A DNA stretch of 26,112 nt from Campylobacterota bacterium (GCA_034658915.1 JAYEGD010000290.1:1-26112), one strand, 5' to 3'; positions 1 to 26,112 are shown, numbered from the stretch's first letter. Numbers and translations are program-made. Notes: generated by a model from the sequence alone, not told the origin.

Positions 1-150
1 CTATCCATCATCCCCATTTGCAGGCTCATTTGTAATTTTAGAAGTTATGTTTGGGCAGATATTTTTTGCAGTTGTAATTGCAAAAATAGTCTCTCTAAGC
101 TTAGTTGAGCAATTAAAGAAGTAATAGTGGCACTAAAAATTACCGAAAAA

Positions 151-236
151 TCTCAAAAACGAAAGTTTTTGTAGCTTTAGGGGGTTGTAGGGACAAATTG
201 TCCATGCCACTAAAATGGACGCGTTCATTTTAGTGT
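151..236 (+). repeat. Copy 1 of an ~85-nt three-hairpin repeat element: HP1 caaaaac-gaaa-gtttttg, conserved linker tagctttagggggttg, HP2 tagggacaa-att-gtcc, HP3 cactaaaatg-gacgcgt-cattttagtg
   Basis: Direct alignment with copies at 8201-8288 and 25977-26062; all three stems show compensatory changes between copies; lies immediately 3' of the agcS stop on the minus strand. Confidence 0.8.
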
Positions 237-241
237 GCAAA

Positions 242-1693
242 TCAATGAAGCCTCTTGACCTCTTTGTCCAACTTTCCAGCTTTTAATTTTGCTAAATAGC
301 TATCTAACTCTTTTTTTACGCCTGAGCTTAATATAAAGAGTCCTAAAATGTTTGGCAGTGCCATGGCTAAAATCAGATAAAAACTAAAATCTACCATTAT
401 ATCTGTACTCACAATTGAAGCAATCATAGCTAAACCTAAAAAGATTAACTTGTAAATAAGTGAGTATTTTGAGCCAAAAAGATATACCCATGCACGCTCA
501 CCATAGTATGACCATGAAATCATCGTACTAAATGCAAAAAGCACAATAGATATTGACAAAATAGTAGGAAACCACCAAACAACACTACCATACGCAGCAG
601 CAGTTAATGCAGCTCCTTGTTTAGCAGCGATTAACTCTCCAAAACCATTAATAGGGTCATGGACACCTGTAATTATGATTACAAGTGCAGTCATTGTACA
701 AACAACAACAGTGTCAATAAAAGGCTCATACAGTGCAACCATACCTTGAGAAACTGGATGCTTTACTTTAGCAGGTGCATGAGCAACAGCAGATGAACCA
801 AGCCCAGCTTCACTAGAAAAAACTGCTCGCTGAAACCCTTGAACAATCACTCCAACAATTCCACCCTCAACTGCGTGTGGTGCAAATGCTTCACTAAAAA
901 TCAATCCAAACGCATGAGGAATCAGATCATAGTTTGAACCCAAAATCCATAATGATGCGCCAATGTATATTACAACCATTGATGGGACAACTTTTGCAGT
1001 CACGGTCGCAATTCTCTTTACGCCACCAATAATTACAGCACCCACAATAACTGCTAATCCCATTCCAAATACAAGTGGATTTGTCTCAAAAAAACTCACC
1101 TGTTGTTGTACTACACCTAACGCTTGAGATACTTGAAAGGTGTTTCCACCTCCAATTGCTCCACCAATCATTAAAAATGCGAATACAACTGCTAAAACTT
1201 TTCCAAATTTAGCGTAACCTTTTTGAGCCAAACCCTTTGAGAGGTACTCCATAGGACCACCCATAACAGAGCCATCTTTTAAAAACTCACGATGCTGCAG
1301 TGAGAGAGTAACCTCTGTAAACTTTAGACTCATACCTAAAAAACCAGCAATTATCATCCAAAATGTAGCCCCTGCCCCACCAATTGAGACAGCTAGTGCA
1401 ACACCCGCAATATTTCCAAGCCCAACAGTAGCAGACAGAGCAGTCGTAAGTGCAGCGAAAGGTTCAATTTCGCCTCTATCATCTTTAGTTCTGAAACGCC
1501 CTCTTATAACCTCATAACTATGCTTAAACATTCTAAGGTTAATAAACCTCATCAATATAGTTAAATAGAGACCTCCTAAAATTAGCCATGCTACTAAAAA
1601 TGGAACTTTCATCTCTCCACCAAAACCTAACAAAATGTCAAAAAACAAAATTGCACCTAAAAAATCATTAATACCTATAAACAGTTCATTCAT
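242..1693 (-). CDS. agcS: Sodium:alanine (alanine/glycine:cation) symporter, AGCS family
   Basis: 483-aa polytopic membrane protein; glycine-rich TM segments and overall architecture typical of the AGCS family (recognised from sequence, not a database search). Confidence 0.8.
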   Translation of the reverse strand: MNELFIGINDFLGAILFFDILLGFGGEMKVPFLVAWLILGGLYLTILMRFINLRMFKHSYEVIRGRFRTKDDRGEIEPFAALTTALSATVGLGNIAGVALAVSIGGAGATFWMIIAGFLGMSLKFTEVTLSLQHREFLKDGSVMGGPMEYLSKGLAQKGYAKFGKVLAVVFAFLMIGGAIGGGNTFQVSQALGVVQQQVSFFETNPLVFGMGLAVIVGAVIIGGVKRIATVTAKVVPSMVVIYIGASLWILGSNYDLIPHAFGLIFSEAFAPHAVEGGIVGVIVQGFQRAVFSSEAGLGSSAVAHAPAKVKHPVSQGMVALYEPFIDTVVVCTMTALVIIITGVHDPINGFGELIAAKQGAALTAAAYGSVVWWFPTILSISIVLFAFSTMISWSYYGERAWVYLFGSKYSLIYKLIFLGLAMIASIVSTDIMVDFSFYLILAMALPNILGLFILSSGVKKELDSYLAKLKAGKLDKEVKRLH

Positions 1694-1695
1694 AC

Positions 1696-2592
1696 TTACT
1701 CTCCTGGACCCTTAACTCTTTTGGCTTTTTTAAACAAAATATCACTCGGACTTCTCTTTAACTCTAATACCGTCTCATTAATGTTTAGCGTTAAAGAGCT
1801 CAACTCATCTAAAAGTTCATCAAGTTTATTGATAGAGTTTTGACTAATATCTTTAACACTGTAGTCACCTCTTTTAATGCTCTTCTCTAAAATCTTTGCA
1901 ACTTTTGAGACATTTTTAGACGCTTCGCTCATATCTTCAAATGTAACACTAGCATCTTTTTCAAACTTTTTTCCATCTTCTATTAGTGACTCAATACTAC
2001 TCATATTTGCTTTTAAAGTTGCAGTAATACTTTGAATATTCTCAATAGAAGCATCTATGTTTTCAATGTTTTTACTACTTAATAGCAAATTAATTTTACC
2101 TAATGAATCAATCAATTTATTAGAAATTTCAGATAGCACCTCATCAACTCTAACAAGTGTTGATGGAGTTGATTTTATGTAAGCAATTTTATCTTTACAT
2201 GTAATCAAAGTAGGCGACTTGTTAGAGCCACCATGAAGCTCAATAAATGCCAAACCAGTCATTCCATAAAATTTCAAACTCGCCAACGTATCTTCTTTAA
2301 TAGGCACAGACTCATTTACATGTAAAAGAAGTAAAACCTCTTTAGTGTTTGATGGATTAATCTGCATAGAATCTACACTACCAACATTTACACCCATGTA
2401 CTTAACACTAGCTTGTGGATTAAGACCCGAAACAGACTCACTCATAACAACATAGTAACTTTTTAAACCACTCTCGTCTCCATATTTACTCAACCAAAAA
2501 ATGAAGCCAATTAGTGCAAAACTAATTAAAACAAAAAATGTTCCAACCATCACATATGATGCTCTGCTATCCATTAATGCCTCTCTTTCCAT
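1696..2592 (-). CDS. mlaD: MlaD-like MCE-domain periplasmic substrate-binding component of an Mla-type ABC transporter
   Basis: N-terminal single TM helix followed by an MCE-like domain; in operon with MlaF- and MlaE-like genes; C-terminal coiled region. Confidence 0.7.
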   Translation of the reverse strand: MEREALMDSRASYVMVGTFFVLISFALIGFIFWLSKYGDESGLKSYYVVMSESVSGLNPQASVKYMGVNVGSVDSMQINPSNTKEVLLLLHVNESVPIKEDTLASLKFYGMTGLAFIELHGGSNKSPTLITCKDKIAYIKSTPSTLVRVDEVLSEISNKLIDSLGKINLLLSSKNIENIDASIENIQSITATLKANMSSIESLIEDGKKFEKDASVTFEDMSEASKNVSKVAKILEKSIKRGDYSVKDISQNSINKLDELLDELSSLTLNINETVLELKRSPSDILFKKAKRVKGPGE

Positions 2593-3319
2593 AAAAAAAA
2601 CTTTTTATTATAGGATGATTACACTTCATAACCTCTTGCAAAGTTCCTTGCGCAACCACTCTAGCCTCTGCTAAAAGTGCAAACCTATCTACACTATTTT
2701 TAATTGAGTCTAAGTCGTGAGTAATCATAACAATACTCAATCCCAGCAAATCTCTCAACTCTACAATAAGTTCATCAAACATATTAGCACTTATGGGGTC
2801 TAACCCTGATGTTGGCTCATCTAAAAAAAGAAGCTGAGGATCCATGCTTAAAGCTCTAGCTAACCCTGCTCTTTTTTTCATTCCACCACTCAACTGCGCT
2901 GGATGCATACTCTTTACATGTAGAGGAAGTCCTACTAAATCAAGTTTTGCATCTACAATTTTATCTATTAAAGAGTTCTCAATATTTGTGTACTCTTTTA
3001 GTGGGAGTGCAATATTTTGTGCAACATTTAAAGATGAATAGAGCGCACCTGATTGAAACAAAACTCCCCAATTTCTTCTTAAAAAATCGCCATCACTAAT
3101 GCTAATGTTTGAGAGTTTTTTACCTAAAATTGTAATGTTGCCACTGCTGGGTTTTTGCAACATTATCATCTCTCTTAGAAGTGTAGATTTACCACTTCCA
3201 CTTCCACCCAGCAGTGCATAAATTTCGCCTCTATTCACACTCAAGCTAAGACCATTATGAACTACATTTTCACCAAATGATGTAACAATATTTTGAACAT
3301 CAACTACAACTTCACTCAT
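2567..3319 (-). CDS. mlaF: ABC transporter ATP-binding protein (MlaF-like)
   Basis: Walker A GGSGSGKSTLLR, ABC signature LSGGMKKRAGLARAL, Walker B LLFLDEPTSGLD. Confidence 0.9.
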   Translation of the reverse strand: MSEVVVDVQNIVTSFGENVVHNGLSLSVNRGEIYALLGGSGSGKSTLLREMIMLQKPSSGNITILGKKLSNISISDGDFLRRNWGVLFQSGALYSSLNVAQNIALPLKEYTNIENSLIDKIVDAKLDLVGLPLHVKSMHPAQLSGGMKKRAGLARALSMDPQLLFLDEPTSGLDPISANMFDELIVELRDLLGLSIVMITHDLDSIKNSVDRFALLAEARVVAQGTLQEVMKCNHPIIKSFFYGKRGING

Positions 3320-4431
3320 AAATTCAACTTCGTTAAAATAACTGAAAAAATAGCGTCACACAAAATAACTAAAAAAATTGAATTAACAACGCTAATGGTA
3401 GTGTAACGCCCAATACTCTCACTACTAGAAGATACTTGAAATCCTCTAAAACAGCTAATGGAAGCAATTAGTAGTGCAAAAAATGGTGCTTTAATTAACC
3501 CAATGTAAAAGTGTCTAATATTTAAAACATCTTGAGTTCTATCTAAAAACTCACTAAAAGTGATGTTTAGTTGTGCCTTTGCAACAACCATACCGCCAAA
3601 TATTCCGACAATATCTGCAACAAAAATAAGCAACACCATAGCAACCATAAGTGCAATAATACGAGGAAGAACTAAAAATCTGTACGGATTAAACCCCATA
3701 GCTTTCATAGCATCAATCTCTTCAGTTAGCTTCATAACGCCCAACTGAGCTGTGTAAGCTGAACCACTTCTTCCAGCTACAACCACCGCAGTCATAAGAG
3801 GTGCCAACTCTCTTGTTAAAGAGATAGTTATCATATCTACAACAAACATATTGGCGCCTAGTTTCTCTAACTGAACTGCACCTTGAAATGTTGTTACAAC
3901 ACCAATTAAGAATGATGTAACAAAAATGATGGGAAGTGCTTTTACTCCTGCGTCTTGAATGTGTCTAAAAATGGAGTTAAATCTTATGGAGCTAGGGTGT
4001 AAAATGTAGTAGATGAGCGCAAAAACACTCTCCCCAGTAAAGTTTAAAAAAAGTTTTAACTCATCTTTAATACCTACAAGATATTTGCCAATATAGTAAA
4101 ATAGGCTCTCTTTTTTAGTTACCTTAACTTCACTATTTTGCACACTGCTTAGTAGCTTGTAAAGCTCTAAATGTCTCTTTGTAGCACCCTTTACATGTAG
4201 TGCAATATTTGCTTTTTTCAATCTCTCATAAAACTCAATAAAAAGTAAAATAGATGAAGAGTCAAACTCCTTTACATCTTCTACATGTAGAACTACCTCT
4301 TTGATGTTTTTGAGTGAAATCTTTTTCAACTCTTTAGAGATTTCTCCCACTCTTTGTACTTTACAATTATCACTAACACTAATGTTAAGTCTCTCATCTT
4401 CTACATGTAGAGTAATCAATTTTACTTCCAC
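3316..4431 (-). CDS. mlaE: MlaE-like ABC permease with an N-terminal ~110-aa STAS/MlaB-like extension
   Basis: C-terminal ~260 aa polytopic permease typical of MlaE; N-terminal soluble region with an internal LHVED duplication; start overlaps the upstream gene. Confidence 0.7.
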   Translation of the reverse strand: MEVKLITLHVEDERLNISVSDNCKVQRVGEISKELKKISLKNIKEVVLHVEDVKEFDSSSILLFIEFYERLKKANIALHVKGATKRHLELYKLLSSVQNSEVKVTKKESLFYYIGKYLVGIKDELKLFLNFTGESVFALIYYILHPSSIRFNSIFRHIQDAGVKALPIIFVTSFLIGVVTTFQGAVQLEKLGANMFVVDMITISLTRELAPLMTAVVVAGRSGSAYTAQLGVMKLTEEIDAMKAMGFNPYRFLVLPRIIALMVAMVLLIFVADIVGIFGGMVVAKAQLNITFSEFLDRTQDVLNIRHFYIGLIKAPFFALLIASISCFRGFQVSSSSESIGRYTTISVVNSIFLVILCDAIFSVILTKLNL

Positions 4432-5844: not shown

Positions 5845-5876
5845 TTATAGCAAAAGAACTATAAAACCATCTTTAT
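5845..5876 (+). repeat. Left copy of a perfect 32-bp direct repeat ttatagcaaaagaactataaaaccatctttat (candidate attL)
   Basis: Identical to 9909-9940; 21 nt upstream of the tRNA-Val 5' end. Confidence 0.9.
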
Positions 5877-5928
5877 ATCCACTTTTATGATATTTGACAT
5901 ACTTTTTTATCTCCTTGAAATTTTATTA

Positions 5929-5934
5929 TATAAT
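5929..5934 (+). promoter_or_regulatory. Candidate sigma70-type -10 box (tataat) for the R-M operon
   Basis: TATAAT about 35 nt upstream of the first ATG of the 5970 ORF, in an AT-rich periodic-T region typical of epsilonproteobacterial promoters; TTGACA at 5894-5899 is too far away to serve as its -35. Confidence 0.3.
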
Positions 5935-5969
5935 TCAAAAAATATTCAGATAAATATTCATACTAATAA

Positions 5970-6962
5970 ATGGAACATATAATGAAAAAAGAATCTACTC
6001 AAACAAAGGATGGGAAAGCATTTGAATATTCTATTCTAAAAGAATTTAAAGAAAAACTAGGAAGTTCAACGACAGTAGAGGTTTTAGAAAACAATGCATT
6101 ATTAACAGCACAAAAACACTTTAATTCTTTTAAAAAAATAGAACAAGCAGAATTTCTACTTTATGCAAGTTTTGCAGTTAACTTTTTAATTGATATAGAA
6201 CCAAGATTATCTAACAGCTTTGATGAAGATGATATTTTACAATTAGAAATATTAACATATGACAAGGGACAAGATGGTGATGTGAGAGATGTTGTTGCTA
6301 TAAGATTATTACAAAAATGGGAAATAGGGATTTCAGCTAAAAATAATCATAAAGCTATAAAACACTCAAGACTTTCTAATAAAATAGATTTTGGAGAAAA
6401 ATGGCTTGGAATAAAATCATCAACACAATATTTCGATGAAATAAGACCAATATTTAACTCTCTTGAAAAAATGAGAACAGAAAGTAATAAAACTAAAACT
6501 TGGAAATCTTTAGGCGATTATCATCATACAGTATATATTCCTATATTAGAAGCCTTTAAAACAGAATTATTAAGAATATATAATACAAACCCTTCTCAAG
6601 TTGCTTCTACTTTAGTAGAGTATCTAATAGGAACTAAAGATTTTTATAAAGTAATTAAAAGTAGAAACAATATTGAAATTCAAGCATATAATTTGCACGG
6701 CACTTTAAATTTACCTTTTAAAGATATTAATCCTAAATTTAATACACCAAAAGTTAATTTACCAACTGAAATTACCAACATATCGTATAAAAAAGACACA
6801 CTAACAACTTTAATCGTTGAATTAAATAACGATTGGACACTATCTTTTCGAATTCATAATGCAAGTTCTAGAATTGAACCATCATTAAAATTTGATATAA
6901 ATTTACTAAAAGCACCTAATTCATTATTTACCAATAAACTTTCTATTGGAGGAGAAGAGTAA
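5970..6962 (+). CDS. Putative Type II restriction endonuclease, cognate partner of the downstream m5C methyltransferase
   Basis: 330-aa ORF whose stop overlaps the methyltransferase ATG by 1 nt (gagtaATGaat), with a GGAGGA ribosome-binding site for the downstream gene inside its 3' end; no recognisable family motifs beyond a possible D..E.K-like patch (DVRDVVAI...EIGISAK); assignment rests on position. Confidence 0.5.
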   Translation: MEHIMKKESTQTKDGKAFEYSILKEFKEKLGSSTTVEVLENNALLTAQKHFNSFKKIEQAEFLLYASFAVNFLIDIEPRLSNSFDEDDILQLEILTYDKGQDGDVRDVVAIRLLQKWEIGISAKNNHKAIKHSRLSNKIDFGEKWLGIKSSTQYFDEIRPIFNSLEKMRTESNKTKTWKSLGDYHHTVYIPILEAFKTELLRIYNTNPSQVASTLVEYLIGTKDFYKVIKSRNNIEIQAYNLHGTLNLPFKDINPKFNTPKVNLPTEITNISYKKDTLTTLIVELNNDWTLSFRIHNASSRIEPSLKFDINLLKAPNSLFTNKLSIGGEE

Positions 6963-8047
6963 TGAATATAATATCTCTGTTTTCTGGTGCTGGAGGATTG
7001 GATTTAGGTTTTGAAAAAGCAGGTTTTAAAACTATTTGGGCGAATGAATATGACAAAGAAATTTGGCAAACATTTGAAAAAAATTTTCCTGATACCATTT
7101 TAGATAGAAGAAGTATATCAAAAATAGCATCAGATGAAATACCAGAAACATTAGGACTTATCGGTGGACCTCCATGTCAAAGTTGGAGTGAAGCAGGAAA
7201 ATCAAGAGGGATAGAAGACCATAGGGGACAACTATTTTTTGAGTTTATAAGAGTTTTAAGAGATAAAAAACCTCTATTTTTCTTAGCTGAAAATGTTTCA
7301 GGAATGTTAGCTCCAAGACATGAAGATGCATTGGAAAATATAAAAAACCACTTTATCGATAGTGGATACACTTTATCGTTTAAACTCATGAATGCTCATG
7401 ATTATAAAGTGCCTCAAGATAGAAAAAGGATATTTTTTATTGGATTTAGAAATGACCTAAATATCACTTTTAAATTTCCAAAAGAGTTTGAAAAAAAACG
7501 ATTTTTAAAAGATGTTATTTCTGATTTAAAAGATAATGTACTTCCTGCTAAAGAAAAAAATTATACAAATGCTGATAAGTGCAAAATAGAAAATCATGAA
7601 TTTATGATTGGTGGATTTTCATCAATGTTTATGTCTAGAAATCGAGTTAGAGGTTGGGATGAACCATCATTTACAATTCAAGCGGGTGGAAGACATGCAC
7701 CACTACATCCACAAGCACCTAAGATGCAACTTGTAGAGCAAAATAAAAGAATATTTGTTCCACATAGTGAACATCTGTATAGAAGACTTAGTGTTAGAGA
7801 GTGTGCTAGAATACAAACATTCCCAGATAGTCATAAATTCTATTATAAAAATGTGACTGCTGGATATAAAATGGTTGGTAATGCTGTACCTCCTAACCTC
7901 GCATACTACTTAGCAAAAAAAATAATTGAAGACTTACAAAGTATTCATCCTAACAAAACAGTGGAACTCACAAATATACCTATCGCTGGTAATTCTAATT
8001 ATTACGAAAATAGCTATATTCCTGAAATTCAAGCTGTGTCAGGCTAG
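6962..8047 (+). CDS. DNA (cytosine-5)-methyltransferase, M.HaeIII-like (predicted GGCC specificity)
   Basis: Motif I FSGAGGLDLGF, motif IV GGPPCQSWSEAG, motif VI ENV, C-terminal GNAVPPNLA. From memory the sequence is near-collinear with M.HaeIII (MNLISLFSGAGGLDLGF...GGPPCQSWSEGG...FMSRNRVR.W.EP.FT.QA.GR...LHPQAP...HLYRRL.VRECAR.Q.FPD...GYKM.GNAVP.NLAY). Confidence 0.9.
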   Translation: MNIISLFSGAGGLDLGFEKAGFKTIWANEYDKEIWQTFEKNFPDTILDRRSISKIASDEIPETLGLIGGPPCQSWSEAGKSRGIEDHRGQLFFEFIRVLRDKKPLFFLAENVSGMLAPRHEDALENIKNHFIDSGYTLSFKLMNAHDYKVPQDRKRIFFIGFRNDLNITFKFPKEFEKKRFLKDVISDLKDNVLPAKEKNYTNADKCKIENHEFMIGGFSSMFMSRNRVRGWDEPSFTIQAGGRHAPLHPQAPKMQLVEQNKRIFVPHSEHLYRRLSVRECARIQTFPDSHKFYYKNVTAGYKMVGNAVPPNLAYYLAKKIIEDLQSIHPNKTVELTNIPIAGNSNYYENSYIPEIQAVSG

Positions 8048-8200
8048 AAGGTACATTTGTAGTTCAACACAACCGTTATGTTCACACCAAGAAAATCAAT
8101 GAGAGAATCATTTAAAAGTAAAATTATAGAAGTTTGCAATAAGAAAATTGAAACTAGAGGTTCAAATGTTTCATAAAAAGCATATAGAAGAACATTTTAT

Positions 8201-8288
8201 CTCTCGAAAACATTGTTTTCGTAGCTTTAAGGGGTGGTAGGGACAAAATTGTCCCTACTACTAAAACGGACGGAGGCGTTTTAGTGCA
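8201..8288 (+). repeat. Copy 2 of the three-hairpin repeat element: HP1 cgaaaac-att-gttttcg, HP2 gtagggacaa-aa-ttgtccctac (perfect), HP3 actaaaacg-gacggagg-cgttttagt
   Basis: Aligns with copies 1 and 3; aaatg/cattt in other copies becomes aaacg/cgttt here (compensatory); sits between the convergent 3' ends of the methyltransferase and the HExxH gene. Confidence 0.8.
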
Positions 8289-8308
8289 TAACATCAGTTA
8301 TTAAATCT

Positions 8309-9259: not shown

Positions 9260-9275
9260 ATTGGCTCCAAAAGTG

Positions 9276-9704: not shown

Positions 9705-9768
9705 TTAATACTCAACCACAACACAAAGCTTTTTTATAAACATCCATATCTTCTCTTTTTCCTACTGC

Positions 9769-9774
9769 TATAAT
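9769..9774 (+). promoter_or_regulatory. Candidate -10 box (tataat) for a plus-strand small transcript
   Basis: Perfect TATAAT about 60 nt upstream of an intrinsic terminator on the same strand; no protein-coding ORF between them. Confidence 0.3.
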
Positions 9775-9830
9775 GTAAATCATAACCTCGTCCTCAATAG
9801 TTTCATTCTATGGAGCGGTAAAAAGCTTTT

Positions 9831-9868
9831 AAAGGTCAAAGGATTAATTACCCTTTGACCTTTTTTTT
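9831..9868 (+). terminator. Rho-independent terminator: stem aaaggtcaaagg / cctttgaccttt, loop attaattac, followed by T8
   Basis: 9-12 bp inverted repeat followed by eight T on the plus strand; could also act weakly for the minus-strand ybeD operon. Confidence 0.6.
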
Positions 9869-9908
9869 GCCCTCCTAGAATATTTTAACCCATTTCCCAA
9901 CATCATTG

Positions 9909-12278: not shown

Positions 12279-12281
12279 GAT

Positions 12282-16370: not shown

Positions 16371-18451
16371 AAAAAGCTCATTTAAACTTACTTGTTTTCA
16401 TCTTTTTACTCGCTATGTTTGGAACTTTTTTCAAACATATTCATTTTAGTACAAACTTAGTAGAGCTTTTAGCTTCTAAAGATGTGACAAGACCAATTGA
16501 TATTGCAAATGAGCTAGGGTACTCAAAAGAGCTTTTTGTTAGCGTTAAGAGTTTTGATGAAAGCTCATTGAAAAAACTCCGTATTATCAAAGCTGAATTA
16601 GAGAAGTTAGAGCTAATTAATAGCGTTGAGTTAGAGCTAAAACCATCAGTTGAGGTGCAAGAGTATTTCAAGAAAAACTACTACATTTTAGCAGACTTCA
16701 ACTCCACAACATTGAGTGAAAATCAACTACATGTAAAGCTTGAAAAACTCTACAACAAAAGCATAAACTCTTTTATTTATGAGCCTCTCAACACGAGTGA
16801 CCCATTAGGGCTATTTGAGTTTAAAGTCTCAAACTACGAGAGCTATTTGAAGTTAGATGAGTTTGGTTATATGTTAAAAGCTTCTACTTCAGCGTCTCTA
16901 TCTAACATGAAAAATGCAAAGAGTATGTATGATGAGGTGCATGAAATTTTACAAAAATATCCTGATGCTATCTCTTTTGCTCCATTTTATTTTTTAGTAG
17001 AAAATTCAAGCTACATCAAAAGTGATGCAACTAATATTATTCTTTTCTCAACTGCTCTTTTACTACTTCTTTACATTGTAATTTTGAAAAATTTTAGGCT
17101 ATTTTTTCACACAATTGTTGCAATTTCTAGCTCAGTTTTGAGTGCTATTTTACTAACTTCACTCTTTTTTGAGAGCATTAACATTATGGTGTTGGCATTT
17201 GGAATAAGCATTACAACTATCTCAATTGACTATATGTTTCACTACTATTTTCATAATGAATTTTCACATCAACACCCAATTAAAAACAAAAAAGTATTTC
17301 TAGGTTTTCTTACAACTGTTGGTGTATTTGTTATTTTTAGTTTTATTGATATTAAACTTTTTGAACAACTTAGCATTTTTAGCGCAATCTCACTGAGTGT
17401 TGCTTACTTACTTTTTAGTTATGTTTTTATCTACTTGAGCATAGAGCCTCCAAAAGTTATTAAGAGTTCAAAAAAGAGCAGAGATATAAACTTGCTATAT
17501 GTAATGAGTGCTTGTGTGCTGATGTTAGCTTATGCATCTCAAAATTTGAGTTTCGATACAAACATAAGAAATTTAGACTACCAAAACACGAAGCTACTAA
17601 GTTTAAGTGAGCAATTTAGTAACTCACTGTCACGTGATGAGTACCAGAGCATTATAATTAGTGCATCAACTAAAGAGGGACTTCTACAACGTTATGAACA
17701 GTTAGCAAAAATAGAGCCATCGCTTCTAGGTATTGGAAAGTTTGAACTAAGCAAAAAAGAGTGCCAAAAGAGACTACATGTAATAAAAAACTACAACTTT
17801 ACAAAGCTTAAAAAAGAGCTAGAACAAAGTGCAACTTCTATTGGTTTTAACAACATATTTAAAAACTCTTATGATGGGCTAAATACTCTTACATGTAGTG
17901 TGGAAGTTCCAAAAAATATGGGTTTTAAAATAGCTTTTTATGATGGAGAGTTTCACACTTTAGCACTAATAAATGAAGATGTAAACATAGAGAATATGCA
18001 AGGAGCAAGCTCTCTACATGTAAGTAAAATTCTCTCAAAAAGTATTGAGTTTATGAAAGAGCAACTTCTTGTTTTTATGGCGCTATCTTTTGCTTTTATT
18101 TTAGCTCTGCTTTTTTTCATGGCAAAGAGTAGATTTTTAGAGCCTCTTAGTTATGTTTTGCTTCCTCTTAGTTCTGTTTTGTTTGTTATCTCATTAGTAG
18201 GTAACTTGAACATTATGCACCTCTTTGCCATTGTAATTTTAGTAGCAATTGGAATTGATTATGGCATTTACATGTACAACTCTACAACCATTTCACAAAC
18301 AACAACTGCAATAAGATATGCACTTTTAAGCACTTTTGCAGGGTTTGGAGTTTTGATTTTTAGTAGTGTTGTCGCTCTTTACTCTATTGGTTTAGTTATT
18401 AGCGTTGGAATTAGTGTCATAGCTATTTTACTTTTTTGGAAAAATTTATGA
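16367..18451 (+). CDS. MMPL/RND-superfamily membrane exporter (putative lipid exporter)
   Basis: 694 aa with two clusters of ~6 TM helices (residues ~220-350 and ~560-690), each preceded by a large soluble loop, as in MMPL/RND-type exporters. Confidence 0.6.
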   Translation: MKKAHLNLLVFIFLLAMFGTFFKHIHFSTNLVELLASKDVTRPIDIANELGYSKELFVSVKSFDESSLKKLRIIKAELEKLELINSVELELKPSVEVQEYFKKNYYILADFNSTTLSENQLHVKLEKLYNKSINSFIYEPLNTSDPLGLFEFKVSNYESYLKLDEFGYMLKASTSASLSNMKNAKSMYDEVHEILQKYPDAISFAPFYFLVENSSYIKSDATNIILFSTALLLLLYIVILKNFRLFFHTIVAISSSVLSAILLTSLFFESINIMVLAFGISITTISIDYMFHYYFHNEFSHQHPIKNKKVFLGFLTTVGVFVIFSFIDIKLFEQLSIFSAISLSVAYLLFSYVFIYLSIEPPKVIKSSKKSRDINLLYVMSACVLMLAYASQNLSFDTNIRNLDYQNTKLLSLSEQFSNSLSRDEYQSIIISASTKEGLLQRYEQLAKIEPSLLGIGKFELSKKECQKRLHVIKNYNFTKLKKELEQSATSIGFNNIFKNSYDGLNTLTCSVEVPKNMGFKIAFYDGEFHTLALINEDVNIENMQGASSLHVSKILSKSIEFMKEQLLVFMALSFAFILALLFFMAKSRFLEPLSYVLLPLSSVLFVISLVGNLNIMHLFAIVILVAIGIDYGIYMYNSTTISQTTTAIRYALLSTFAGFGVLIFSSVVALYSIGLVISVGISVIAILLFWKNL

Positions 18452-19581
18452 AAATATTGAATTTAGATACAAACAGTTATGAGGTGGTTCGTAAAATTGA
18501 GTCGCCTCAAACAAAAATTGAGCAACTTCTGCACCTTTTATACTGTTATGAAAACTCTATTTATGAGACACTTTATGACAAAAACCAACCCATTTTAAAG
18601 AGCTATGTGCAGAGTTTAAAAGAGGTTAAAGAGACAAATGAGCAGTTTTTATTTTTTACATCTGGGACAACTGGCAATCCAACTGGAGCATTTAAAACTA
18701 AGGAAAATTTAGAGCTAGAGGTAAAAGAGTTAGTTGATATTTTGAGTGCTTATGCAATTCAAAGAGTAGTTGTAACTGTACCATTTGTTCATCTTTATGG
18801 TGTTAATGTGGGGGCGTTGCTTTCAAAGTATCTACATGTAGAGCTTGTTGTGAAAGAGAATTTTTTACTAGAAGAGCTAATTGAACAAGCTCAAAAAAGA
18901 GACACCCTAGTGGTTACTACACCGCTTTTCATAAAAGCGTTAAATAGATTGAAAAAAGATGTAGAGTTTAAAAATGCACTCTTTATTACCTCCACTTCGC
19001 CACTACAACAAAGCGATGCAAAGGAGTTTAAAGAGCATTACAACTCTACTGTAATGCAGATATTTGGCTCAACAGAGAGTGGAGCAATTGCTTATAAATT
19101 TGATGATAATAAGATATGGAGAGCATTTAAGAGTGTTGAAATAAGCTCAAAAAATGAGATGCTAGAGGTGACATCGCCATTTATTTCTCGTAAGCTTCTA
19201 AATGAAAAAGTACAAACTGTAGAGTTACCATTCAAAAGTGAAGATATTGTAAACATTGTAAGTGAAAAAGAGTTTATTTTAGTAGGAAGAGACTCATCGC
19301 TTATTAAAATAGCTGGCAAGAGGTTTTCGACTCTTCAAATAGAGAGTATTGTGGAGTCATTACCTGAGGTCAATAGCGCCATAGTAAAAGTTAAAAGAGA
19401 TGACAAAGCACTTAAAGATGAAATTGTGGAAATTTACATAGAACAAAATGAAGATTTTAACCACAAAAAAGTAAGAGAACTTTTTTTAAAAAACTTTGGT
19501 TCAACGCATATTCCATACAAGCTACATGTAGTGCAAAAAATACTATTTAGTTCTGTTGGAAAAAAGATTGGATTTGAGTAA
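18436..19581 (+). CDS. AMP-dependent synthetase/ligase family protein (short acyl-CoA/acyl-ACP ligase-like)
   Basis: AMP-binding motif FFTSGTTGNPTGAFKT; start overlaps the MMPL gene by 16 nt. Confidence 0.65.
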   Translation: MEKFMKILNLDTNSYEVVRKIESPQTKIEQLLHLLYCYENSIYETLYDKNQPILKSYVQSLKEVKETNEQFLFFTSGTTGNPTGAFKTKENLELEVKELVDILSAYAIQRVVVTVPFVHLYGVNVGALLSKYLHVELVVKENFLLEELIEQAQKRDTLVVTTPLFIKALNRLKKDVEFKNALFITSTSPLQQSDAKEFKEHYNSTVMQIFGSTESGAIAYKFDDNKIWRAFKSVEISSKNEMLEVTSPFISRKLLNEKVQTVELPFKSEDIVNIVSEKEFILVGRDSSLIKIAGKRFSTLQIESIVESLPEVNSAIVKVKRDDKALKDEIVEIYIEQNEDFNHKKVRELFLKNFGSTHIPYKLHVVQKILFSSVGKKIGFE

Positions 19582-20374: not shown

Positions 20375-21132
20375 AAGTGCCTGACAATAAACCCACTGTT
20401 AACTAAACTCTTTTTATTGTACTTTAACTCTTCATTATCAAACACGCTTATTATGTTTTTTCCACACTCTAATAGAACACTATGAGCCGCTGCACTGTCC
20501 CACTCCATAGTTGGTGCAAAACGTGGGTACTCATCTGCTACTCCCTCAGCCACAAGGCAAAACTTTAGCGAGCTTCCAATATTTACTAGCTCTACATCTT
20601 TAGTTTTTTTAAGCTCTTCAATGTACTTTTTCGTCTCATCATTCATATGTGAATTACTTGCAACTACTACATATTTATCTCTTACATGTAGTGAGCTATT
20701 TTGAACTATTTGTATGCCATTTTTAAAAGCTCCAACACCTTTTTTTGCACTGTACATATCTTTTAAAACAGGTGCATAAACTACACCTAACACTGGTCTA
20801 TTATCTTGCATTAGTGCAATATTTACTGTGAACTCTCCATTTCTTTTTACAAACTCTTTTGTACCATCAAGTGGGTCTATGCACCAGTAACTTTTCCAAC
20901 ATTTTCTTACTTCATACTGTGTTTCATCATCCTCTTCTGACATAATCTCTATCGTAGGATAGAGCTTTTTAAGAGCTTCACAAATTATCTCATTTGACTT
21001 TAAATCTGCTTTTGTTAGAGGCGAATTGTCATCTTTGAAATTTACTTCAAACTCTTCATTATAAATTTCTAAAATTGCTTCACCTGCTTCAACTGCAATT
21101 TGCTCTATCTTTTTTAAATCAATCTCTATCAC
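20365..21132 (-). CDS. cysQ: Inositol-monophosphatase-family protein, CysQ-like 3'(2'),5'-bisphosphate nucleotidase
   Basis: [12 protein letters not shown] metal-binding motif and overall IMPase-fold pattern; 255 aa. Confidence 0.7.
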
Positions 21133-22939
21133 TATACACCTCTTTAATTTTTAATGCATCACTCATATTCAGCACTTCAGCAATCTCTTCAACACTCAAT
21201 TTTTTTAGTGCTTCAAATGTTCCAAAATGAAGTAGAAGTTTTTTCACTTTTGCTTCGCTTACACCTTTTACATGTAGAAGTTTACTTTGCTTGTCTAATT
21301 TTAGTTTACTCTTTTTATGAAACCCTATTGCACTTCTATGCGCTTCATCTCTTAAAAGTTGAACAAACTGTAACCTTTTGTCAGAGGGTTGCAGTTTAAA
21401 TGAGTCGTTAATAGTATGAATTTCATCATTAGCCCTACCCTTTGCACGGTGTGATTTTGCATCTATCTTCTCTTTAGAAATAGCAATTACATCGAGGTTA
21501 ACACCACAACTCTCAATAATGCTTTGAGCTAGTAGAAGTAGAGTTCTACCACCATCTAAAACCCATAAATCAGGTGGTGGATTTTTTTCAAAACTCTCAA
21601 CTCTTCTTGTTAATGTCTCTCTCATTTGAGCATACTCATCTAACGCTTTTAAGTGGTAAAGTCTGTATGACTCTTTTTCAAACCTATTATCATCATACAC
21701 AACCATAGCTCCTACAGGTGCAGTTCCACCCATATGTGAGTTGTCAAATGTCTCTACTCTTAATGGTACTCTTTGTAGTGAACACAACTCTTTTAGTGCT
21801 TCGCCAACCTCTTGTGATTGCTCTTTTTTCTTAATTAATAGCTCTTTTGCATTACTAAAAGCCAATTGTGTAAGCTCTCTTTTAACACCCTTTTGAGGAG
21901 AAATTATTTTTACTTTTTTTCCAAAAAGGTTGGTTAAATGTTCTGAAATAACACCCTTTTCATCAAAATTATCATAACACAAAACATCTACTACAATGGG
22001 TGGTTTTTCATTTCCATAAAAGTTTACAATTGAGCGTGAGTATAGCTCATTAACATCTGCTCCATAGAGCAGATTTATATTAGTTGATGAACTTGAAATA
22101 ATCTTACCATCGCGCATAAACATCTGCATCATAACCGCTTTTTTCTCACTATGTGCTAGTGCAAAAATATCATAATTCTCACTACTCATCACATCAATAC
22201 TTGACTTAATTTCACTCTTTTGAATTCTTATAATTCTATCTCTTAGTGTTGCAGCCTCTTCAAAACGCTCATTTTGTGCATAAAAGAGCATCTTTTGCTC
22301 AATATCTTTAAGAAGTGTTTTTTTATTTTGAATATAGCTTACTCCTTTTGCAACAATTTTTTTGTACTCTTCAACGCTAATGCTACCCTCACATGGAGCT
22401 AAACACTTCTCGATTTGTTGATATAAACAAGCTTTCTTCCCTTTTAGACAACTCTTTTTTTGTACTAATTGACATAGCTCATAAATGCTGTCGTAAATAT
22501 CTCTAGCACCAATTGAGTATGGTCCAAAATATTTAATATCTCTACCTTTAATTACTCTTCTTGTTATCTCAAATCTTGGATAATCTTCTGACTCATCTAT
22601 GTAGATATAGGGGTAGGTTTTGTCATCACGAAGTAAAATATTGTATTTTGGATTCAACTGCTTAATAAGTGAGTTCTCTAAAATTAGCGCATCATGCTCA
22701 CTAGATACTACAATATACTCTAATGAGACTACTTCATCTAACATCTTTAAAATACGCAAAGATTGATTAGGGTTTGGCTTTAAAGTCGGAGTAAATCGCC
22801 AATAGCTTTTTACTCTTTTTGACAACTCCTTAGCTTTTCCAACATACAACAACTTGCCATTTTTGTCTAAATATTGGTAAATCCCTGCACTTTGTGGAAG
22901 AGATTTAATTACATGTAATAACTCATTAATCTCTTGCAT
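21119..22939 (-). CDS. uvrC: Excinuclease ABC subunit C
   Basis: N-terminal GIY-YIG ([28 protein letters not shown]), UvrBC-interaction region, C-terminal endonuclease and HhH regions; 606 aa. Confidence 0.9.
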
Positions 22940-23330: not shown

Positions 23331-25333
23331 ACTCTTTTACGCTCTCTTACCTCTTTTTTTAGTGCAATCGATGTACTAACACCACCCTTAATATTTCTCA
23401 TCTTTAGTTTACCTAAGTGGTGTTCATTAACAATTATTCGTGACATATAAAGACCAAGCCCAGTACCATTTTTTTCCTCTTTTGTGGAGAAGTATGGGTC
23501 AAAAACTTTATCTATAATTGCATCTGGTACTCCACCACCATTGTCTGATATATCGATATAAACATACTCATTATCTTCATATGTTCCTATATTAATAACA
23601 GGATTTAATATTTTTCTTTCATGAAAATTATCTTGTGAATTTTTTAAGATATTTAGCACAACTTGCATCATCTCACTGGAGTACATGTAGATCTCTATTT
23701 GAGTCTGATAATCTTTTTTCACCTCAATTAAACTACTCTCAAAAAGGCTCTGCACAATTTTAAATGACTTCTCAATAGGTTCTATAATTGTAACTAATCC
23801 TCTTCTCTTATCGCTTTTGTAGAAGTCTCTAAAATCATCAATTGTTCGTGTTAATGTTTTTACCATATAATCAATTTCAGATGTTTTTGATAAGATGAAC
23901 TCTTCATAATTTTTAGCACCACTTTTGCTATTTAAATCAAACCTTTTAAGTGTAGTTTTTACCTCAACATCTATTACGGTAGATGCAATTGCTGCAAGAG
24001 GTTGTCTCCATTGATGCGCAATCATACTTATCATCTCGCCCATTTGAGCTAGTCTAGCACTTTGTGCTATCATTAAATCTTTTTTTTCTAACTCTGCTAA
24101 TGAATCTTGAACCTTTTTTTCTAGGTTTTGATTTAGCAGTTTAAGCTCATTTGCAGTTGCAGAAGTGATGTTTAAGAGTGTATCAACTGTGCTGTTTTCA
24201 CTGCTTAATTTCCTCTCAATATTGAGTGAACTTCTTGAGTCAATTTTACTATTTTCACTAAGTGCTAATAGCGTTATAGAGTTGTTTAAGATATCTGAAC
24301 GACTCTTATGAGTAAAAAATTCTCCATAAGTAAAAAAACCACTAATATTTTCATTATCGCTAAAGTGTTCAAACTCATACTCTGCCATATTTTTCAAAAA
24401 ATGTCTTCTAGCCATGCATGAATAGACAAAGATTGTTTCACTATTTTTTTGAGCAATATCTTCAGCTAGTATATTTGCACTATCTAAAATTCTATCTACA
24501 CTACCTACAGAGAAACTAACTTTGGATCCTTGTGGCATATCACCTGCAAAAACTAATGAGCCATCGCTACCTTTATTAAGCATAACTCTAGCAATTTTAT
24601 AGCCATCTTTGTTGATTACAAGAGGAAACTCTGTACCCAAAAGAGGAAGATTAGCTGTAATTTCACTGCCTAAAAACTTGTTAAACAGCTCCAAAGGATT
24701 TTTATTATTAATAGAATATACAATATTATCAACCGACCTTGTAATAGTAAACTCTACACCAATAGCTTTCCAAGAGAGAAGATTTTTTTGGTATATGCTA
24801 AGTGTTTTTGATACAAAAGCAACACCAACAATTCCAGATTTTAAAACACTACTGTCGTGAATTATATAGCTCTCACTAAATGCACCATTGTCTCCAGCAA
24901 CTCCACCACTTATTATTAACTTTTTATGCTCATCTTTAATTGCAGAGAGTATCTTACTTATTCTAGTATTAAACCCACAAGCATACATAATTAAGAGTTT
25001 TGAAGATTTAGGTATTTTTTTATTAATTGCAACATCTGAATCATCAAATTCTGAATGATATAGATGAAGTTTTGTACTCTCAAAATAGCTAATAGATATT
25101 ACAATCTTATTAGTAGAGACTATTTTTTCATTAATTTCACCATCAGTAGTTGCACCTATAATTTTTGCCTCTGGCAAGCTCTTTTTTATTAAAGAGGATA
25201 TATGCTCAAGCAAATCAACCAATAATAGACCAGAAAAAATTTGCACTAAAACATCTGTGTGAAGCTCTTTTGAGTTCTCAATAAAATCTATTAAATCTCT
25301 GTCTGATTTATAATATGTTGTTTTTGTAGTCAC
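23327..25333 (-). CDS. Cytoplasmic sensor histidine kinase with an N-terminal FIST-like sensory region
   Basis: C-terminal H-box HQWRQPL and HATPase motifs DNGGGVP and GTGLGLYMSRII; a coiled linker precedes the H-box; N-terminal ~400 aa with no TM helix resembles FIST N/C domains (from memory, moderate). Confidence 0.65.
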   Translation of the reverse strand: MTTKTTYYKSDRDLIDFIENSKELHTDVLVQIFSGLLLVDLLEHISSLIKKSLPEAKIIGATTDGEINEKIVSTNKIVISISYFESTKLHLYHSEFDDSDVAINKKIPKSSKLLIMYACGFNTRISKILSAIKDEHKKLIISGGVAGDNGAFSESYIIHDSSVLKSGIVGVAFVSKTLSIYQKNLLSWKAIGVEFTITRSVDNIVYSINNKNPLELFNKFLGSEITANLPLLGTEFPLVINKDGYKIARVMLNKGSDGSLVFAGDMPQGSKVSFSVGSVDRILDSANILAEDIAQKNSETIFVYSCMARRHFLKNMAEYEFEHFSDNENISGFFTYGEFFTHKSRSDILNNSITLLALSENSKIDSRSSLNIERKLSSENSTVDTLLNITSATANELKLLNQNLEKKVQDSLAELEKKDLMIAQSARLAQMGEMISMIAHQWRQPLAAIASTVIDVEVKTTLKRFDLNSKSGAKNYEEFILSKTSEIDYMVKTLTRTIDDFRDFYKSDKRRGLVTIIEPIEKSFKIVQSLFESSLIEVKKDYQTQIEIYMYSSEMMQVVLNILKNSQDNFHERKILNPVINIGTYEDNEYVYIDISDNGGGVPDAIIDKVFDPYFSTKEEKNGTGLGLYMSRIIVNEHHLGKLKMRNIKGGVSTSIALKKEVRERKRV

Positions 25334-25872
25334 TATTTATCATACTTTGTTAGGTTATTGTATCTAATAGTATCGGCTACAATTTTAGTGTATTTAGCCC
25401 CTAACTCTGAGTATTTATTAAGCTCTTTCACCAATAGATAAACATTATTAGTTTTCATCTGTTTCTCTTTGAATTTTTTGTAAGCTTTTGCTCTACTAAT
25501 TGTTAAATAGTAGCTACTAATAGAGTCTTTAATAGTTGCGTACTTTCTTACCCAAATACTCTTACCATTACGCTTTTGAGATGCTGCAATTTTTGGAAGT
25601 TTTGAACTCCCTGCCCACATACCAAAAGCGTTATTAGCCTCTTTAAAAAAACGTGAAGTTCCCCAGCCACTCTCAATAGCAGCTTGTGCAACTGCAATAC
25701 TAATTGGATGAGGCTTAATAGCTTTTAGCAACTCCTCATCAGTAGATACTCGATATTTTTTTTTTAATAATGCAATTAACTGAGTACTTTTTCCATAAGC
25801 CATATCACTTTTAAGCCTTAAATATTGATACTGTAAAGAGTTGTAAGTTTGTGTAATTTGAGGAACCATCAA
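25333..25872 (-). CDS. Glucosaminidase-domain protein (FlgJ C-terminal / Bax-like peptidoglycan hydrolase)
   Basis: Motif AQAAIESGWGTSRFFKEANNAFGMW typical of the mannosyl-glycoprotein endo-beta-N-acetylglucosaminidase domain. Confidence 0.65.
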   Translation of the reverse strand: MMVPQITQTYNSLQYQYLRLKSDMAYGKSTQLIALLKKKYRVSTDEELLKAIKPHPISIAVAQAAIESGWGTSRFFKEANNAFGMWAGSSKLPKIAASQKRNGKSIWVRKYATIKDSISSYYLTISRAKAYKKFKEKQMKTNNVYLLVKELNKYSELGAKYTKIVADTIRYNNLTKYDK

Positions 25873-25976
25873 TGCAAAAAATCTATCTTTTTTAGTTTGA
25901 GTTGCATTTGATAAAGTAGATGTAATAAGTATAATAATTAAATATCTTAAAATAATTACTCCTTAAAATCTTTTAA

Positions 25977-26062
25977 TTCTCGAAAACAGAGTTTTCGCAG
26001 CTTTAGGGGGTTGTAGGGACACTTGTGTCCCTGCCACCAAAATGGACGTGTTCATTTTGGTG
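25977..26062 (+). repeat. Copy 3 of the three-hairpin repeat element: HP1 cgaaaac-aga-gttttcg, linker cagctttagggggttg, HP2 tagggacac-ttg-tgtccctg, HP3 caccaaaatg-gacgtgt-cattttggtg
   Basis: Aligns with copies 1 and 2 with compensatory substitutions in HP2 and HP3. Confidence 0.8.
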
Positions 26063-26076
26063 TAAAAATAGTGTTA

Positions 26077-26112
26077 TTGTAGGGACACTTGTGTCCCTGC
26101 CAGCAAAATGGA
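26077..26112 (+). repeat. Second, partial HP2-HP3 unit (ttgtagggacacttgtgtccctgccagcaaaatgga) 14 nt after copy 3, truncated by the window end
   Basis: 35 of 36 nt identical to 26030-26065 region of copy 3; indicates tandem iteration continuing beyond the window. Confidence 0.7.

Follow-up and report, generated by a model that had tools for sequence, protein, structure and literature searches.

TACATGTA, a highly iterated palindromic octamer dispersed through unrelated genes of Campylobacterota

The 26,112-bp stretch of DNA considered here, referred to as the window, is the entire contig JAYEGD010000290.1 of an uncultured Campylobacterota metagenome-assembled genome (MAG). Within it, the palindromic octamer TACATGTA recurs in one gene after another at a frequency that composition does not account for. 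This raises the question of what keeps so many exact copies of one short word in genes of unrelated function, and of how the word compares with cyanobacterial HIP1 (highly iterated palindrome 1, GCGATCGC) and with bacterial uptake sequences, the two systems to which a first-pass annotation of the window had likened it.

TACATGTA is enriched at the level of DNA

An exact search finds 22 copies of TACATGTA in the window, a density of 0.84 per kb. Shuffles that preserve dinucleotide composition hold 0.62 copies on average and never more than 2 (n = 100), and an order-3 Markov model predicts 0.54 per strand, which corresponds to an enrichment of approximately 40-fold. The first-pass annotation had reported 21 copies against about one expected; all 21 positions were confirmed and one more, at 2196, had been missed, so the excess is real and was slightly understated. 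When its proposed count of 8-mers against an order-3 Markov expectation is run on the window, TACATGTA ranks first (44 counts over both strands, followed by TTTTAAAA with 32), and whatever other 8-mers and 10-mers show strong enrichment are the same word, shifted or extended. The enrichment of other AT-rich palindromes to the same degree would have pointed to an artefact, but the window holds no comparable palindrome, as TTTTAAAA itself occurs 16 times against 13 expected and CAATATTG 6 times against 1.6.

The signal is also sharply bounded. The hexamer ACATGT is found 24 times in the window, 22 of them within TACATGTA, and octamers that differ from TACATGTA by one mismatch occur 7 times where approximately 16 are expected. 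The flanks are biased in the manner first described, with a pyrimidine at position -1 in 21 of the 22 copies and, at +1, G in 15, A in 6, and C in 1. The flank preference is genuine, although the 10-bp form YTACATGTAR proves to be one lineage-specific dialect of a longer, graded palindrome (approximately 14 bp) and not a fixed motif. As TACATGTA is its own reverse complement, the strand or replichore skew of asymmetric signals such as Chi or the FtsK orienting polar sequences (KOPS) is impossible for it, and its 40-fold excess is the opposite of the depletion that marks an avoided restriction target.

All 22 copies lie within open reading frames (ORFs), distributed over 13 functionally unrelated genes on both strands. 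Sixteen are read as YTA-CAT-GTA (Leu-His-Val), four as ACA-TGT (Thr-Cys), and two as TAC-ATG-TAY (Tyr-Met-Tyr), against codon-usage expectations of 0.26, 0.16, and 0.11, respectively, so that each frame is enriched 18-62 fold. The tripeptide Leu-His-Val occurs 17 times in the window against 1.1 expected, and 16 of these 17 occurrences are spelled YTACATGTA. Likewise, the leucine codons CTA and TTA stand at 12:4 within the motif, compared with 163:315 in the window overall.

The proteins themselves indicate how such copies are accommodated. In an alignment of 120 UvrC homologues, histidine at both motif sites is found in the window organism alone, the other sequences having E, D, Q, or N at the site of aa 8-10 and N, S, or T at that of aa 555-557. 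In RNase HII, the motif overlays a histidine that is conserved in solved homologues. The two cases together indicate that the motif comes to lie at places where it demands few changes or tolerable ones. The proposal that a DNA motif imposes amino acids on unrelated proteins is thus supported by the three frames, both strands, the Leu-His-Val excess, and the UvrC histidines, with the reservation that imposition of residues holds for UvrC but not for RNase HII, where the conserved histidine was already present. These data show that the enrichment of TACATGTA is a DNA-level signal and not a codon, peptide, or repeat-element effect.

Spread by copy-paste or by a mobile element was considered and rejected. 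It had been hinted at by a 17-nt exact repeat at 4275 and 4395, but over site pairs, shared flank runs are no commoner than column shuffles predict (P = 0.33), which excludes such an origin. Furthermore, the hallmarks of repetitive extragenic palindromic (REP) or miniature inverted-repeat transposable element (MITE) families, namely a conserved element extending beyond the core and a mostly intergenic location, were not observed.

Distribution, anatomy, and maintenance among relatives

Other carriers of the motif were sought in 185,579 species genomes (one per species, 596 Gb) by a scan for three copies at fixed gaps, for which chance is expected, by our own estimate, to yield a single-digit number of matches. 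At least 116 stretches matched. Among the matches listed, 28 blocks (designated below by L and a number) come from approximately 23 other Campylobacterota genomes, labelled Sulfurimonas, Sulfurospirillum, Arcobacter, Campylobacteraceae, Campylobacterales, or Helicobacteraceae; dispersed copies are present in all of them, and several genomes were matched on two or three contigs. The comparison with related species envisaged in the first-pass annotation therefore finds the motif to be dense elsewhere in the phylum, and with the same flank bias. In these blocks, ACATGT again lies nearly always within TACATGTA, and the wider flanks of the copies are unrelated (mean identity 0.33-0.38). With the three ascertaining copies removed, the density is 0.13-1.7 per kb against approximately 0.03 expected. 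One block, L196 (JAFGUB010000008.1, ‘Campylobacterales bacterium’), carries 8 dispersed CTTACATGTAAG-type copies in ORFs over 8 kb of a genome with 56% GC, which indicates that AT-richness is not the cause of the enrichment.

Over 5,183 bp, the window sequence is reproduced by a 5.2-kb contig of an independent Logan assembly (SRR26901924), which shows 2 mismatches and has the same motif sites. The window UvrC (MEA1917908.1) finds its closest UvrC among 5.8 billion proteins in Sulfurimonadaceae, at 67% identity; the exact products of the first and last window ORFs match no record, probably owing to different start-codon calls. Loci anchored on uvrC, which were chosen without regard to the motif, reveal an uneven distribution. 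No copy is present in the 21.8 kb covered for each of Sulfurimonas sp. CS5 and S. gotlandica GD1, nor in L240, L255, and L256, so that five Sulfurimonadaceae lineages stand at zero over 13.9-21.8 kb each. The RIFOXYD12_FULL_33_39 lineage has 8 copies of TACATGTA together with 8 half-variants NACATGTA, and the nearest relative of the window, L254, has 2 copies in 5.2 kb, one of which is orthologous to the window site at 23682. The motif is thus patchy among non-pathogenic Campylobacterota, including related sulfur-oxidising bacteria, with motif-rich and motif-poor species within one genus.

Matches outside the Campylobacterota were rejected as instances of the same phenomenon, most of them being fixed-period tandem repeats. 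Also rejected was a group of long-read assemblies named by universally unique identifier (UUID) and labelled Nitrospirales, ‘bacterium’, Stappiaceae, or Ekhidna, with 2-11 TACATGTA per kb (prefixes CBDBCZ, CBDBZY, CBDFIV, OZ2199xx, and CBDHDT; blocks L122, L133, L142-L143, L148, L166-L167, L172-L173, L192-L194, L197, L202, L213, L217, L224, and others). Their stop-free coverage is only 4-67%, which ordinary prokaryotic DNA does not show, they contain (TACATG)n microsatellites, and they may be mis-binned eukaryotic or satellite-rich sequence. Among viral contigs, the three-copy scan returned 20 stretches, which are tandem repeats or belong to one unrelated phage family of 48% GC and none of which is Campylobacterota-like, and a two-copy scan was set aside as dominated by chance matches. 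In one 4.2-kb viral contig (IMGVR_UViG_3300035510_000526; L025 3138-3948), 11 copies are clustered as GTGTCTACATGTAGTG and ACACTACATGTAGTGT, an arrangement that resembles an array of iterons or operators and not the dispersed genomic signal. As regards the taxonomic labels, L124, L170, and L206 (labelled Arcobacter sp., Sulfurospirillum arcachonense MAG, and Sulfurospirillum sp.) share 75-88% nucleotide identity, so at least some of the NCBI genus labels must be inconsistent.

The anatomy of the motif is common to coding and non-coding DNA. Pooled over the relatives, 215 sites divide into 113, 45, and 7 in the three frames, the same preference as in the window, and 50 outside long ORFs; the density is 2.2 per kb in non-coding DNA and 0.8 per kb in coding DNA. 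Long spacers reach 7-11 copies in 0.4-0.9 kb, as in L134 (1605-2413) and L183 (4531-4894). The motif is therefore denser where coding constraint is absent. Pyrimidines are preferred at positions -3 to -1 and purines at +1 to +3, and since coding and non-coding sites share this bias, it is a property of the DNA signal. TACATGTA is accordingly the core of a graded palindrome of approximately 14 bp, roughly CTT-TACATGTA-AAG, of which CTTTACATGTAAAG is the 14-mer. The pair at -1/+1 differs between lineages, being T..A in approximately 100% of copies in L152, L182, and L218, C..G in the majority in L206, L214, and the window, and relaxed in L128, L239, and L232.

In the Campylobacteraceae-labelled MAGs, unusually long spacers (0.3-0.9 kb) carry 5-11 copies each, further examples being L218 6530-6833 and L128 2456-2727. 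Some of the spacer copies are nested in longer palindromes, such as TAATCCTTACATGTGAGGATTA in L134. No shared landmark is found beside these pile-ups, whose neighbours are housekeeping genes of unconnected function (for LuxS, IGPS, a TonB receptor, P5C reductase, and a P-type ATPase), and they give no match to Rfam at the gathering score.

Individual copies are held in place. Blocks that were matched independently turned out to be partly orthologous between species (69-92% nucleotide identity), which is very unlikely without positional conservation. In orthologous alignments, 30 of 40 motif copies (75%) are conserved compared with 23% of control octamers, figures that are biased upward as the blocks were mostly picked for having three copies; a partial correction that drops the ascertaining copies and uses neighbouring sites leaves 16 of 31 conserved. 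A MidA/DUF185-like methyltransferase gene in L124 (4600-5655), with orthologues in L170 and L206, has five copies that occupy all three frames over 240 bp, which would make it a handy natural locus for tests. Every one of the five is conserved in L170, at 88% nucleotide identity; at 75% identity three are conserved and two are one-off variants. For the window's own sites, positional conservation was compared at one locus, L254, and no window gene except uvrC has an orthologue in the motif-rich blocks.

The manner in which copies are lost is equally informative. Among 15 non-conserved orthologous sites, 7 show single changes, mostly at positions 7-8, the one-off states being TACATGTT, TACATGTG, and TACATGCA. 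In the pooled relatives, one-mismatch octamers number 113 against 124 expected. The sole enriched neighbour is the outer-position variant CACATGTA (2.9-fold in the pooled relatives and 16-fold in L239), and TATATGTA, the deamination product to be expected if the C is methylated, is mildly low (14 observed, 17.5 expected). One-mismatch copies are thus not in excess even though simple mutational decay of approximately 200 exact copies should leave roughly as many, which implies that damaged copies are efficiently removed or restored. Sites in the RIFOXYD12 lineage differ from their motif-poor orthologues at 2-6 of 8 positions, where control octamers differ at a mean of 2.0, so that these sites were built or erased by several changes and not by slow drift around an ancestral word. 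Taken together, the data show a sequence-specific force acting on DNA that is limited by coding, is lineage-specific with dialects, holds sites in place, and purges decayed copies.

Known systems and candidate mechanisms

TACATGTA is the closest counterpart of HIP1 outside the cyanobacteria. It displays each feature of the HIP class that was examined, being an exact palindromic octamer at least 15-fold over composition-aware expectation, dispersed in unrelated genes and spacers with unrelated flanks (in the window ORFs and in the relatives' contigs), conserved at orthologous sites above control octamers with an upward ascertainment bias remaining, and prone to deviate at its first or last position. 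HIP1 and the alternate HIPs are likewise exact palindromic octamers, over-represented tens-fold at approximately 1 per kb, which are scattered over spacers and, in several frames, over genes of unrelated function. Both systems have a nested 4-bp methyltransferase target (GATC in HIP1, CATG in TACATGTA), both vary at the outermost positions, and HIP1, too, is conserved in orthologues above control octamers. Each has been lost or replaced in some lineages and is scarce in acquired DNA. Nevertheless, TACATGTA in a Campylobacterota MAG is not HIP1 proper, which is defined by the sequence GCGATCGC and a cyanobacterial host. The two sequences are unrelated (25% GC compared with 75%) and belong to different phyla; TACATGTA is patchy within genera whereas HIP1 is nearly phylum-wide; and the flanking positions of TACATGTA differ between lineages. 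In addition, enzymes for CGATCG and GATC are known for HIP1, while none was found for TACATGTA in the blocks screened.

The uptake signal sequences (USS) of Pasteurellaceae and the DNA uptake sequences (DUS) of Neisseriaceae offer a second comparison, here made from sequence alone. Like these, TACATGTA occurs approximately once per kb, at positions that the protein tolerates and more densely in non-coding DNA, and it combines a core with weaker flank preferences in lineage dialects; in both cases, accumulation would be expected from a transmission advantage and not from a benefit to the gene. However, USS and DUS are asymmetric 9-12-mers with abundant one-mismatch variants, and DUS often form inverted pairs in terminators, whereas TACATGTA is a perfect palindrome with no one-off excess. 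They are also shared by whole families, and TACATGTA is absent from sister species. The first-pass description of a genome signal resembling HIP1 or uptake sequences is borne out by the frames, both strands, the non-coding pile-ups, and the flank bias shared with relatives.

Other systems resemble TACATGTA in fewer respects. The RAATTY sites of Campylobacter jejuni, marked by CtsM, are palindromes in the same phylum, and the self mark laid down there by an orphan methyltransferase corresponds to what the model favoured here would predict. RAATTY, however, is a degenerate hexamer found about every 60 bp in AT-rich DNA and not reported as a sharply enriched octamer, and no CtsM-like enzyme is known for TACATGTA. 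At the CCWGG sites of Dcm and Vsr in Escherichia coli, biased repair raises a methyltransferase target and lowers its deamination neighbour, a parallel that differs in scale, since the effect there is few-fold at one position and that of TACATGTA is approximately 40-fold at eight sharp positions. REP sequences and the bacterial interspersed mosaic elements (BIME), Correia elements, and miniature repeats are also short and palindromic and reach hundreds to thousands of copies, but they are 30-150-bp intergenic units with conserved flanks and hairpins; the information in TACATGTA is confined to approximately 14 bp, its flanks are unrelated, and most copies lie in frame inside genes. In the literature covered, which excludes most subscription journals, neither TACATGTA nor ACATGT is described as a bacterial motif of very high abundance, and no HIP-type palindrome is reported from Campylobacterota.

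These comparisons make it plausible, though the reading is a tentative one, that TACATGTA is a genome-signature palindrome of the HIP1/uptake-sequence class with a methylation-linked mechanism of transformation or recombination. Motif-rich lineages would carry a sequence-specific recognition system for the palindrome, most likely in the form of an orphan DNA methyltransferase that marks the nested CATG/ACATGT core. A step in natural transformation or recombination would favour DNA bearing the marked motif, and alleles with an exact copy would displace those that lack it. The motif would then build up wherever proteins tolerate Leu-His-Val, Thr-Cys, or Tyr-Met-Tyr, saturate the spacers, and tag resident DNA as self. 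Such a transmission advantage would explain the accumulation at tolerant codons, the pile-ups in spacers, the persistence of sites, dialects that coevolve with a receptor or enzyme, and the absence of the motif from newly acquired DNA.

Methylation and transformation are favoured on account of CATG enzymes in relatives, the RAATTY system, and the behaviour of HIP1 in Synechococcus. The supplement of Blow et al. (2016) lists active N6-methyladenine (m6A) methyltransferases for CATG, and no partner nuclease for them, in Sulfurimonas denitrificans and Sulfurospirillum barnesii, two relatives outside the set counted here for the motif; the suggestion that CATG serves as a methyltransferase target gains external support to that extent. 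C. jejuni restricts uptake to DNA whose RAATTY palindromes carry the methyl mark of an orphan methyltransferase. Methylated HIP1 raises the transformation of Synechococcus more than 100-fold, and the abundance of HIP1 correlates with uptake machinery.

Several observations weigh against this methylation-linked reading. No motif-specific methyltransferase, uptake receptor, or repair nuclease was found in the window or in the approximately 250 kb of relatives' blocks; a screen of the Campylobacterota blocks for ORFs with [DNS]PP[YFW], the signature of N6/N4 methyltransferases, found none, and the sole methyltransferase in the window is the HaeIII-type C5 enzyme of an island described below. The lack of TACATGTA in sister species of one genus is at odds with uptake sequences, which are usually family-wide. 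Known uptake sequences are, moreover, non-palindromic and surrounded by abundant one-mismatch variants, whereas the neighbours of TACATGTA are scarce. The evidence from the MAG itself spans only 26 kb, and the conservation figures carry the upward bias already mentioned.

One alternative dispenses with uptake. In Elhai's model for HIP1, a methyltransferase marks the core, and a motif-directed repair activity, of the mismatch or very-short-patch type, turns near-matches and damaged copies into the exact palindrome within each cell. In keeping with such repair, neighbours of TACATGTA are at or under expectation with only outer-position variants enriched, 7 of 15 non-conserved sites are one-off and mostly changed at positions 7-8, CATG methylation exists in relatives, and the outer-position bias mirrors the one reported for HIP1. 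Yet a Vsr-like single-base activity mends one position and not eight, 2-6 of the 8 positions differ between the sites in L239 and their orthologues in motif-poor lineages, which could hardly have arisen by repair of near-matches, and no repair gene was found in the window or in the approximately 250 kb of relatives' blocks. Helicobacter and Campylobacter are not known to possess MutS1/MutL mismatch repair. Biased repair on its own is judged unlikely. Far less probable is a by-product of restriction-modification (R-M), in which, for instance, a system with ACATGT or TACATGTA as its target lets sites shielded by the cognate methyltransferase drift upward or brings about selection linked to post-segregational killing. 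A palindromic core of 6-8 bp is typical of Type II systems, the patchy species distribution resembles that of mobile R-M genes, and the window bears strong R-M footprints (GGCC, CCGG, and GATC are depleted). However, restriction targets are normally avoided, as these same depletions illustrate, which is the reverse of a 40-fold excess; R-M is not known to raise the density of its own site by any mechanism; and a flank bias extending to +/-3 is unusual for Type II recognition.

A graded palindrome of approximately 14 bp that is identical in coding and non-coding DNA is also typical of the footprint of a dimer, and the copies could in principle be an array bound by an abundant DNA-binding protein that acts as a dimer, nucleoid-associated or chromosome-organising, with each site kept by ordinary selection for chromosome structure or for epigenetic regulation by CATG methylation. 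Positional conservation above control, the clusters in long spacers, the over-frequent spacings of 90-125 bp (5 of 21, P = 0.0008, for a range chosen post hoc), and the structural role once proposed for HIP1 all fit such an array. Against it, sister species of the same biology are fully without the motif, which is therefore dispensable, and placement tracks protein tolerance with no visible genomic landmark. The sites of parS, matS, Noc, and SlmA number tens per genome and not approximately one per kb. This alternative is improbable, somewhat more so than biased repair. There is finally the case of no biological signal at all, whether a composition or codon artefact, a selected Leu-His-Val peptide, or remnants of dispersed repeats, for which one could cite the 16 of 22 copies that share one frame and one tripeptide and the AT-rich genome. 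The tests run refute it and leave it a negligible chance: shuffles and the Markov model do not approach the observed count (maximum 2 copies and 0.54, respectively); all frames and both coding strands are enriched, with non-coding pile-ups in relatives; the enrichment is found in a genome of 56% GC and in no other AT-rich palindrome; flanks are unrelated (identity 0.33-0.38; P = 0.33 beyond position bias); and an independent assembly of the same organism has the same sites.

A more specific form of the methylation-linked reading, possible but doubtful, is that TACATGTA with its flank dialects is, in environmental Campylobacterota, a methylation-marked self tag for natural transformation that arose independently of HIP1 and works alike, in which case HIPs would be general, convergent solutions to kin-biased DNA exchange. 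HIP1 has been known for three decades without agreement on its function, and the work has been limited to one phylum. A second, unrelated palindrome of the same anatomy provides independent comparative leverage on the HIP question, and does so in a phylum of which one species has been proven to take up DNA in a methylation-dependent manner. As motif-rich and motif-poor species are related, phylogenetic profiling could pinpoint the determinant, be it a methyltransferase, a receptor for uptake, or a nuclease acting in repair, an approach that is hard in cyanobacteria because HIP1 is nearly universal there. If the self-tag reading is true, such sister species amount to a natural experiment for the responsible genes, and if the link with transformation is true, methylated copies could improve genetic tools for chemolithotrophs that are hard to engineer. 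The octamer is also a strong marker for binning and for telling resident from acquired DNA in genomes of the Sulfurimonas, Sulfurospirillum, and Arcobacter type.

Window sites and the motif-free island

The positions of the 22 copies and of the island discussed below are collected in Table 1. Most of the gene names of the first-pass annotation are upheld by Pfam, which recognises MlaD, the ABC ATPase, MlaE, the MobA-like protein, HisIE, RNase HII, the AMP-binding protein, the inositol-monophosphatase/CysQ-like protein, UvrC, and the FIST histidine kinase. The exception is the ‘MMPL exporter’ at 16367-18451 (+), a name without support, since this 694-aa ORF with its five motif copies has no match in Pfam or NCBIfam. 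It is neighboured by a weakly LolA-like ORF (15894-16370, +) and an acyl-CoA-ligase-like gene (18436-19581, +), which suggests a lipid or pigment export cluster.

Table 1. Copies of TACATGTA in the window and the acquired island, with gene context and reading
Feature	Coordinates	Context
TACATGTA copy	2196..2203	mlaD; T-ACA-TGT-A (Ile-Thr-Cys-Lys)
TACATGTA copy	2317..2324	mlaD; TTA-CAT-GTA, Leu-His-Val
TACATGTA copy	2915..2922	mlaF-like ABC ATPase; CTA-CAT-GTA, Leu-His-Val
TACATGTA copy	4192..4199	mlaE, N-terminal STAS part; Leu-His-Val
TACATGTA copy	4282..4289	mlaE; Leu-His-Val
TACATGTA copy	4402..4409	mlaE; Leu-His-Val; last copy before the motif-free stretch
TACATGTA copy	10833..10840	mobA-like; ACA-TGT frame (Ser-Thr-Cys-Ser)
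TACATGTA copy	12626..12633	hisIE; ACA-TGT frame (Ser-Thr-Cys-Ser)
TACATGTA copy	15375..15382	rnhB (RNase HII); Leu-His-Val; Leu-His-Ile in E. coli RNase HII
TACATGTA copy	15579..15586	rnhB; Leu-His-Val over the His conserved in solved RNase HII homologues
TACATGTA copy	16291..16298	158-aa LolA-like ORF; Leu-His-Val
TACATGTA copy	16728..16735	694-aa ORF; Leu-His-Val
TACATGTA copy	17775..17782	694-aa ORF; Leu-His-Val
TACATGTA copy	17890..17897	694-aa ORF; Leu-Thr-Cys-Ser frame
TACATGTA copy	18015..18022	694-aa ORF; Leu-His-Val
TACATGTA copy	18269..18276	694-aa ORF; TAC-ATG-TAC, Tyr-Met-Tyr
TACATGTA copy	18833..18840	AMP-binding acyl-CoA-ligase-like gene; Leu-His-Val
TACATGTA copy	19523..19530	AMP-binding gene; Leu-His-Val
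TACATGTA copy	20683..20690	cysQ/inositol-monophosphatase-like; Leu-His-Val
TACATGTA copy	21269..21276	uvrC aa 555-557; His in 0/119 homologues (N/S/T)
TACATGTA copy	22910..22917	uvrC aa 8-10; His in 0/119 homologues (E/D/Q/N)
TACATGTA copy	23682..23689	FIST histidine kinase; Tyr-Met-Tyr; orthologous copy in L254, offset by a 6-nt indel
Acquired island, motif-free	5845..9940	Direct repeat, R-M genes, GC dip; context, not part of the motif

The spacing of neighbouring copies shows one regularity. Five of the 21 start-to-start distances fall at 90-125 bp and none is shorter (2196/2317, 4192/4282/4402, and 17775/17890/18015). A simulation gives P = 0.0008 for the range 88-130 bp, which was picked after the data were seen. 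The spacing could reflect chance, clustering in tolerant protein segments, or real phasing.

No copy of TACATGTA is present between 4410 and 10832. Part of this stretch is an insert of 4.1 kb bracketed by a perfect 32-nt direct repeat (TTATAGCAAAAGAACTATAAAACCATCTTTAT, at 5845-5876 and 9909-9940). It contains genes for a HaeIII-like endonuclease (5970-6962), a C5 cytosine methyltransferase (6962-8047), a 316-aa hypothetical protein, and a DUF3293 protein; at 6001-7000 the GC content falls to 26.6%, and an integrase is not apparent. The whole looks like a site-specifically integrated R-M island. At the local density of approximately 1 per kb, zero copies in 4.1 kb have a probability of approximately 0.02, which is consistent with slow accumulation of the motif in resident DNA but does not prove it. 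The gap had initially been taken as an independent mark of foreign DNA, and this stands insofar as 5845-9940 is acquired and repeat-flanked; however, the gap reaches beyond the island into DUF493 and MoaC, which are core-like genes.

Short palindromes of other sequence are strongly avoided in the window, with GGCC found once against 18.5 expected, CCGG absent against 18.5, and GATC found 11 times against 78.5. The avoidance of GGCC matches the HaeIII-type system of the island. ACGT and TCGA stand at approximately 0.28, and AGCT and TGCA are over-represented approximately 2-fold.

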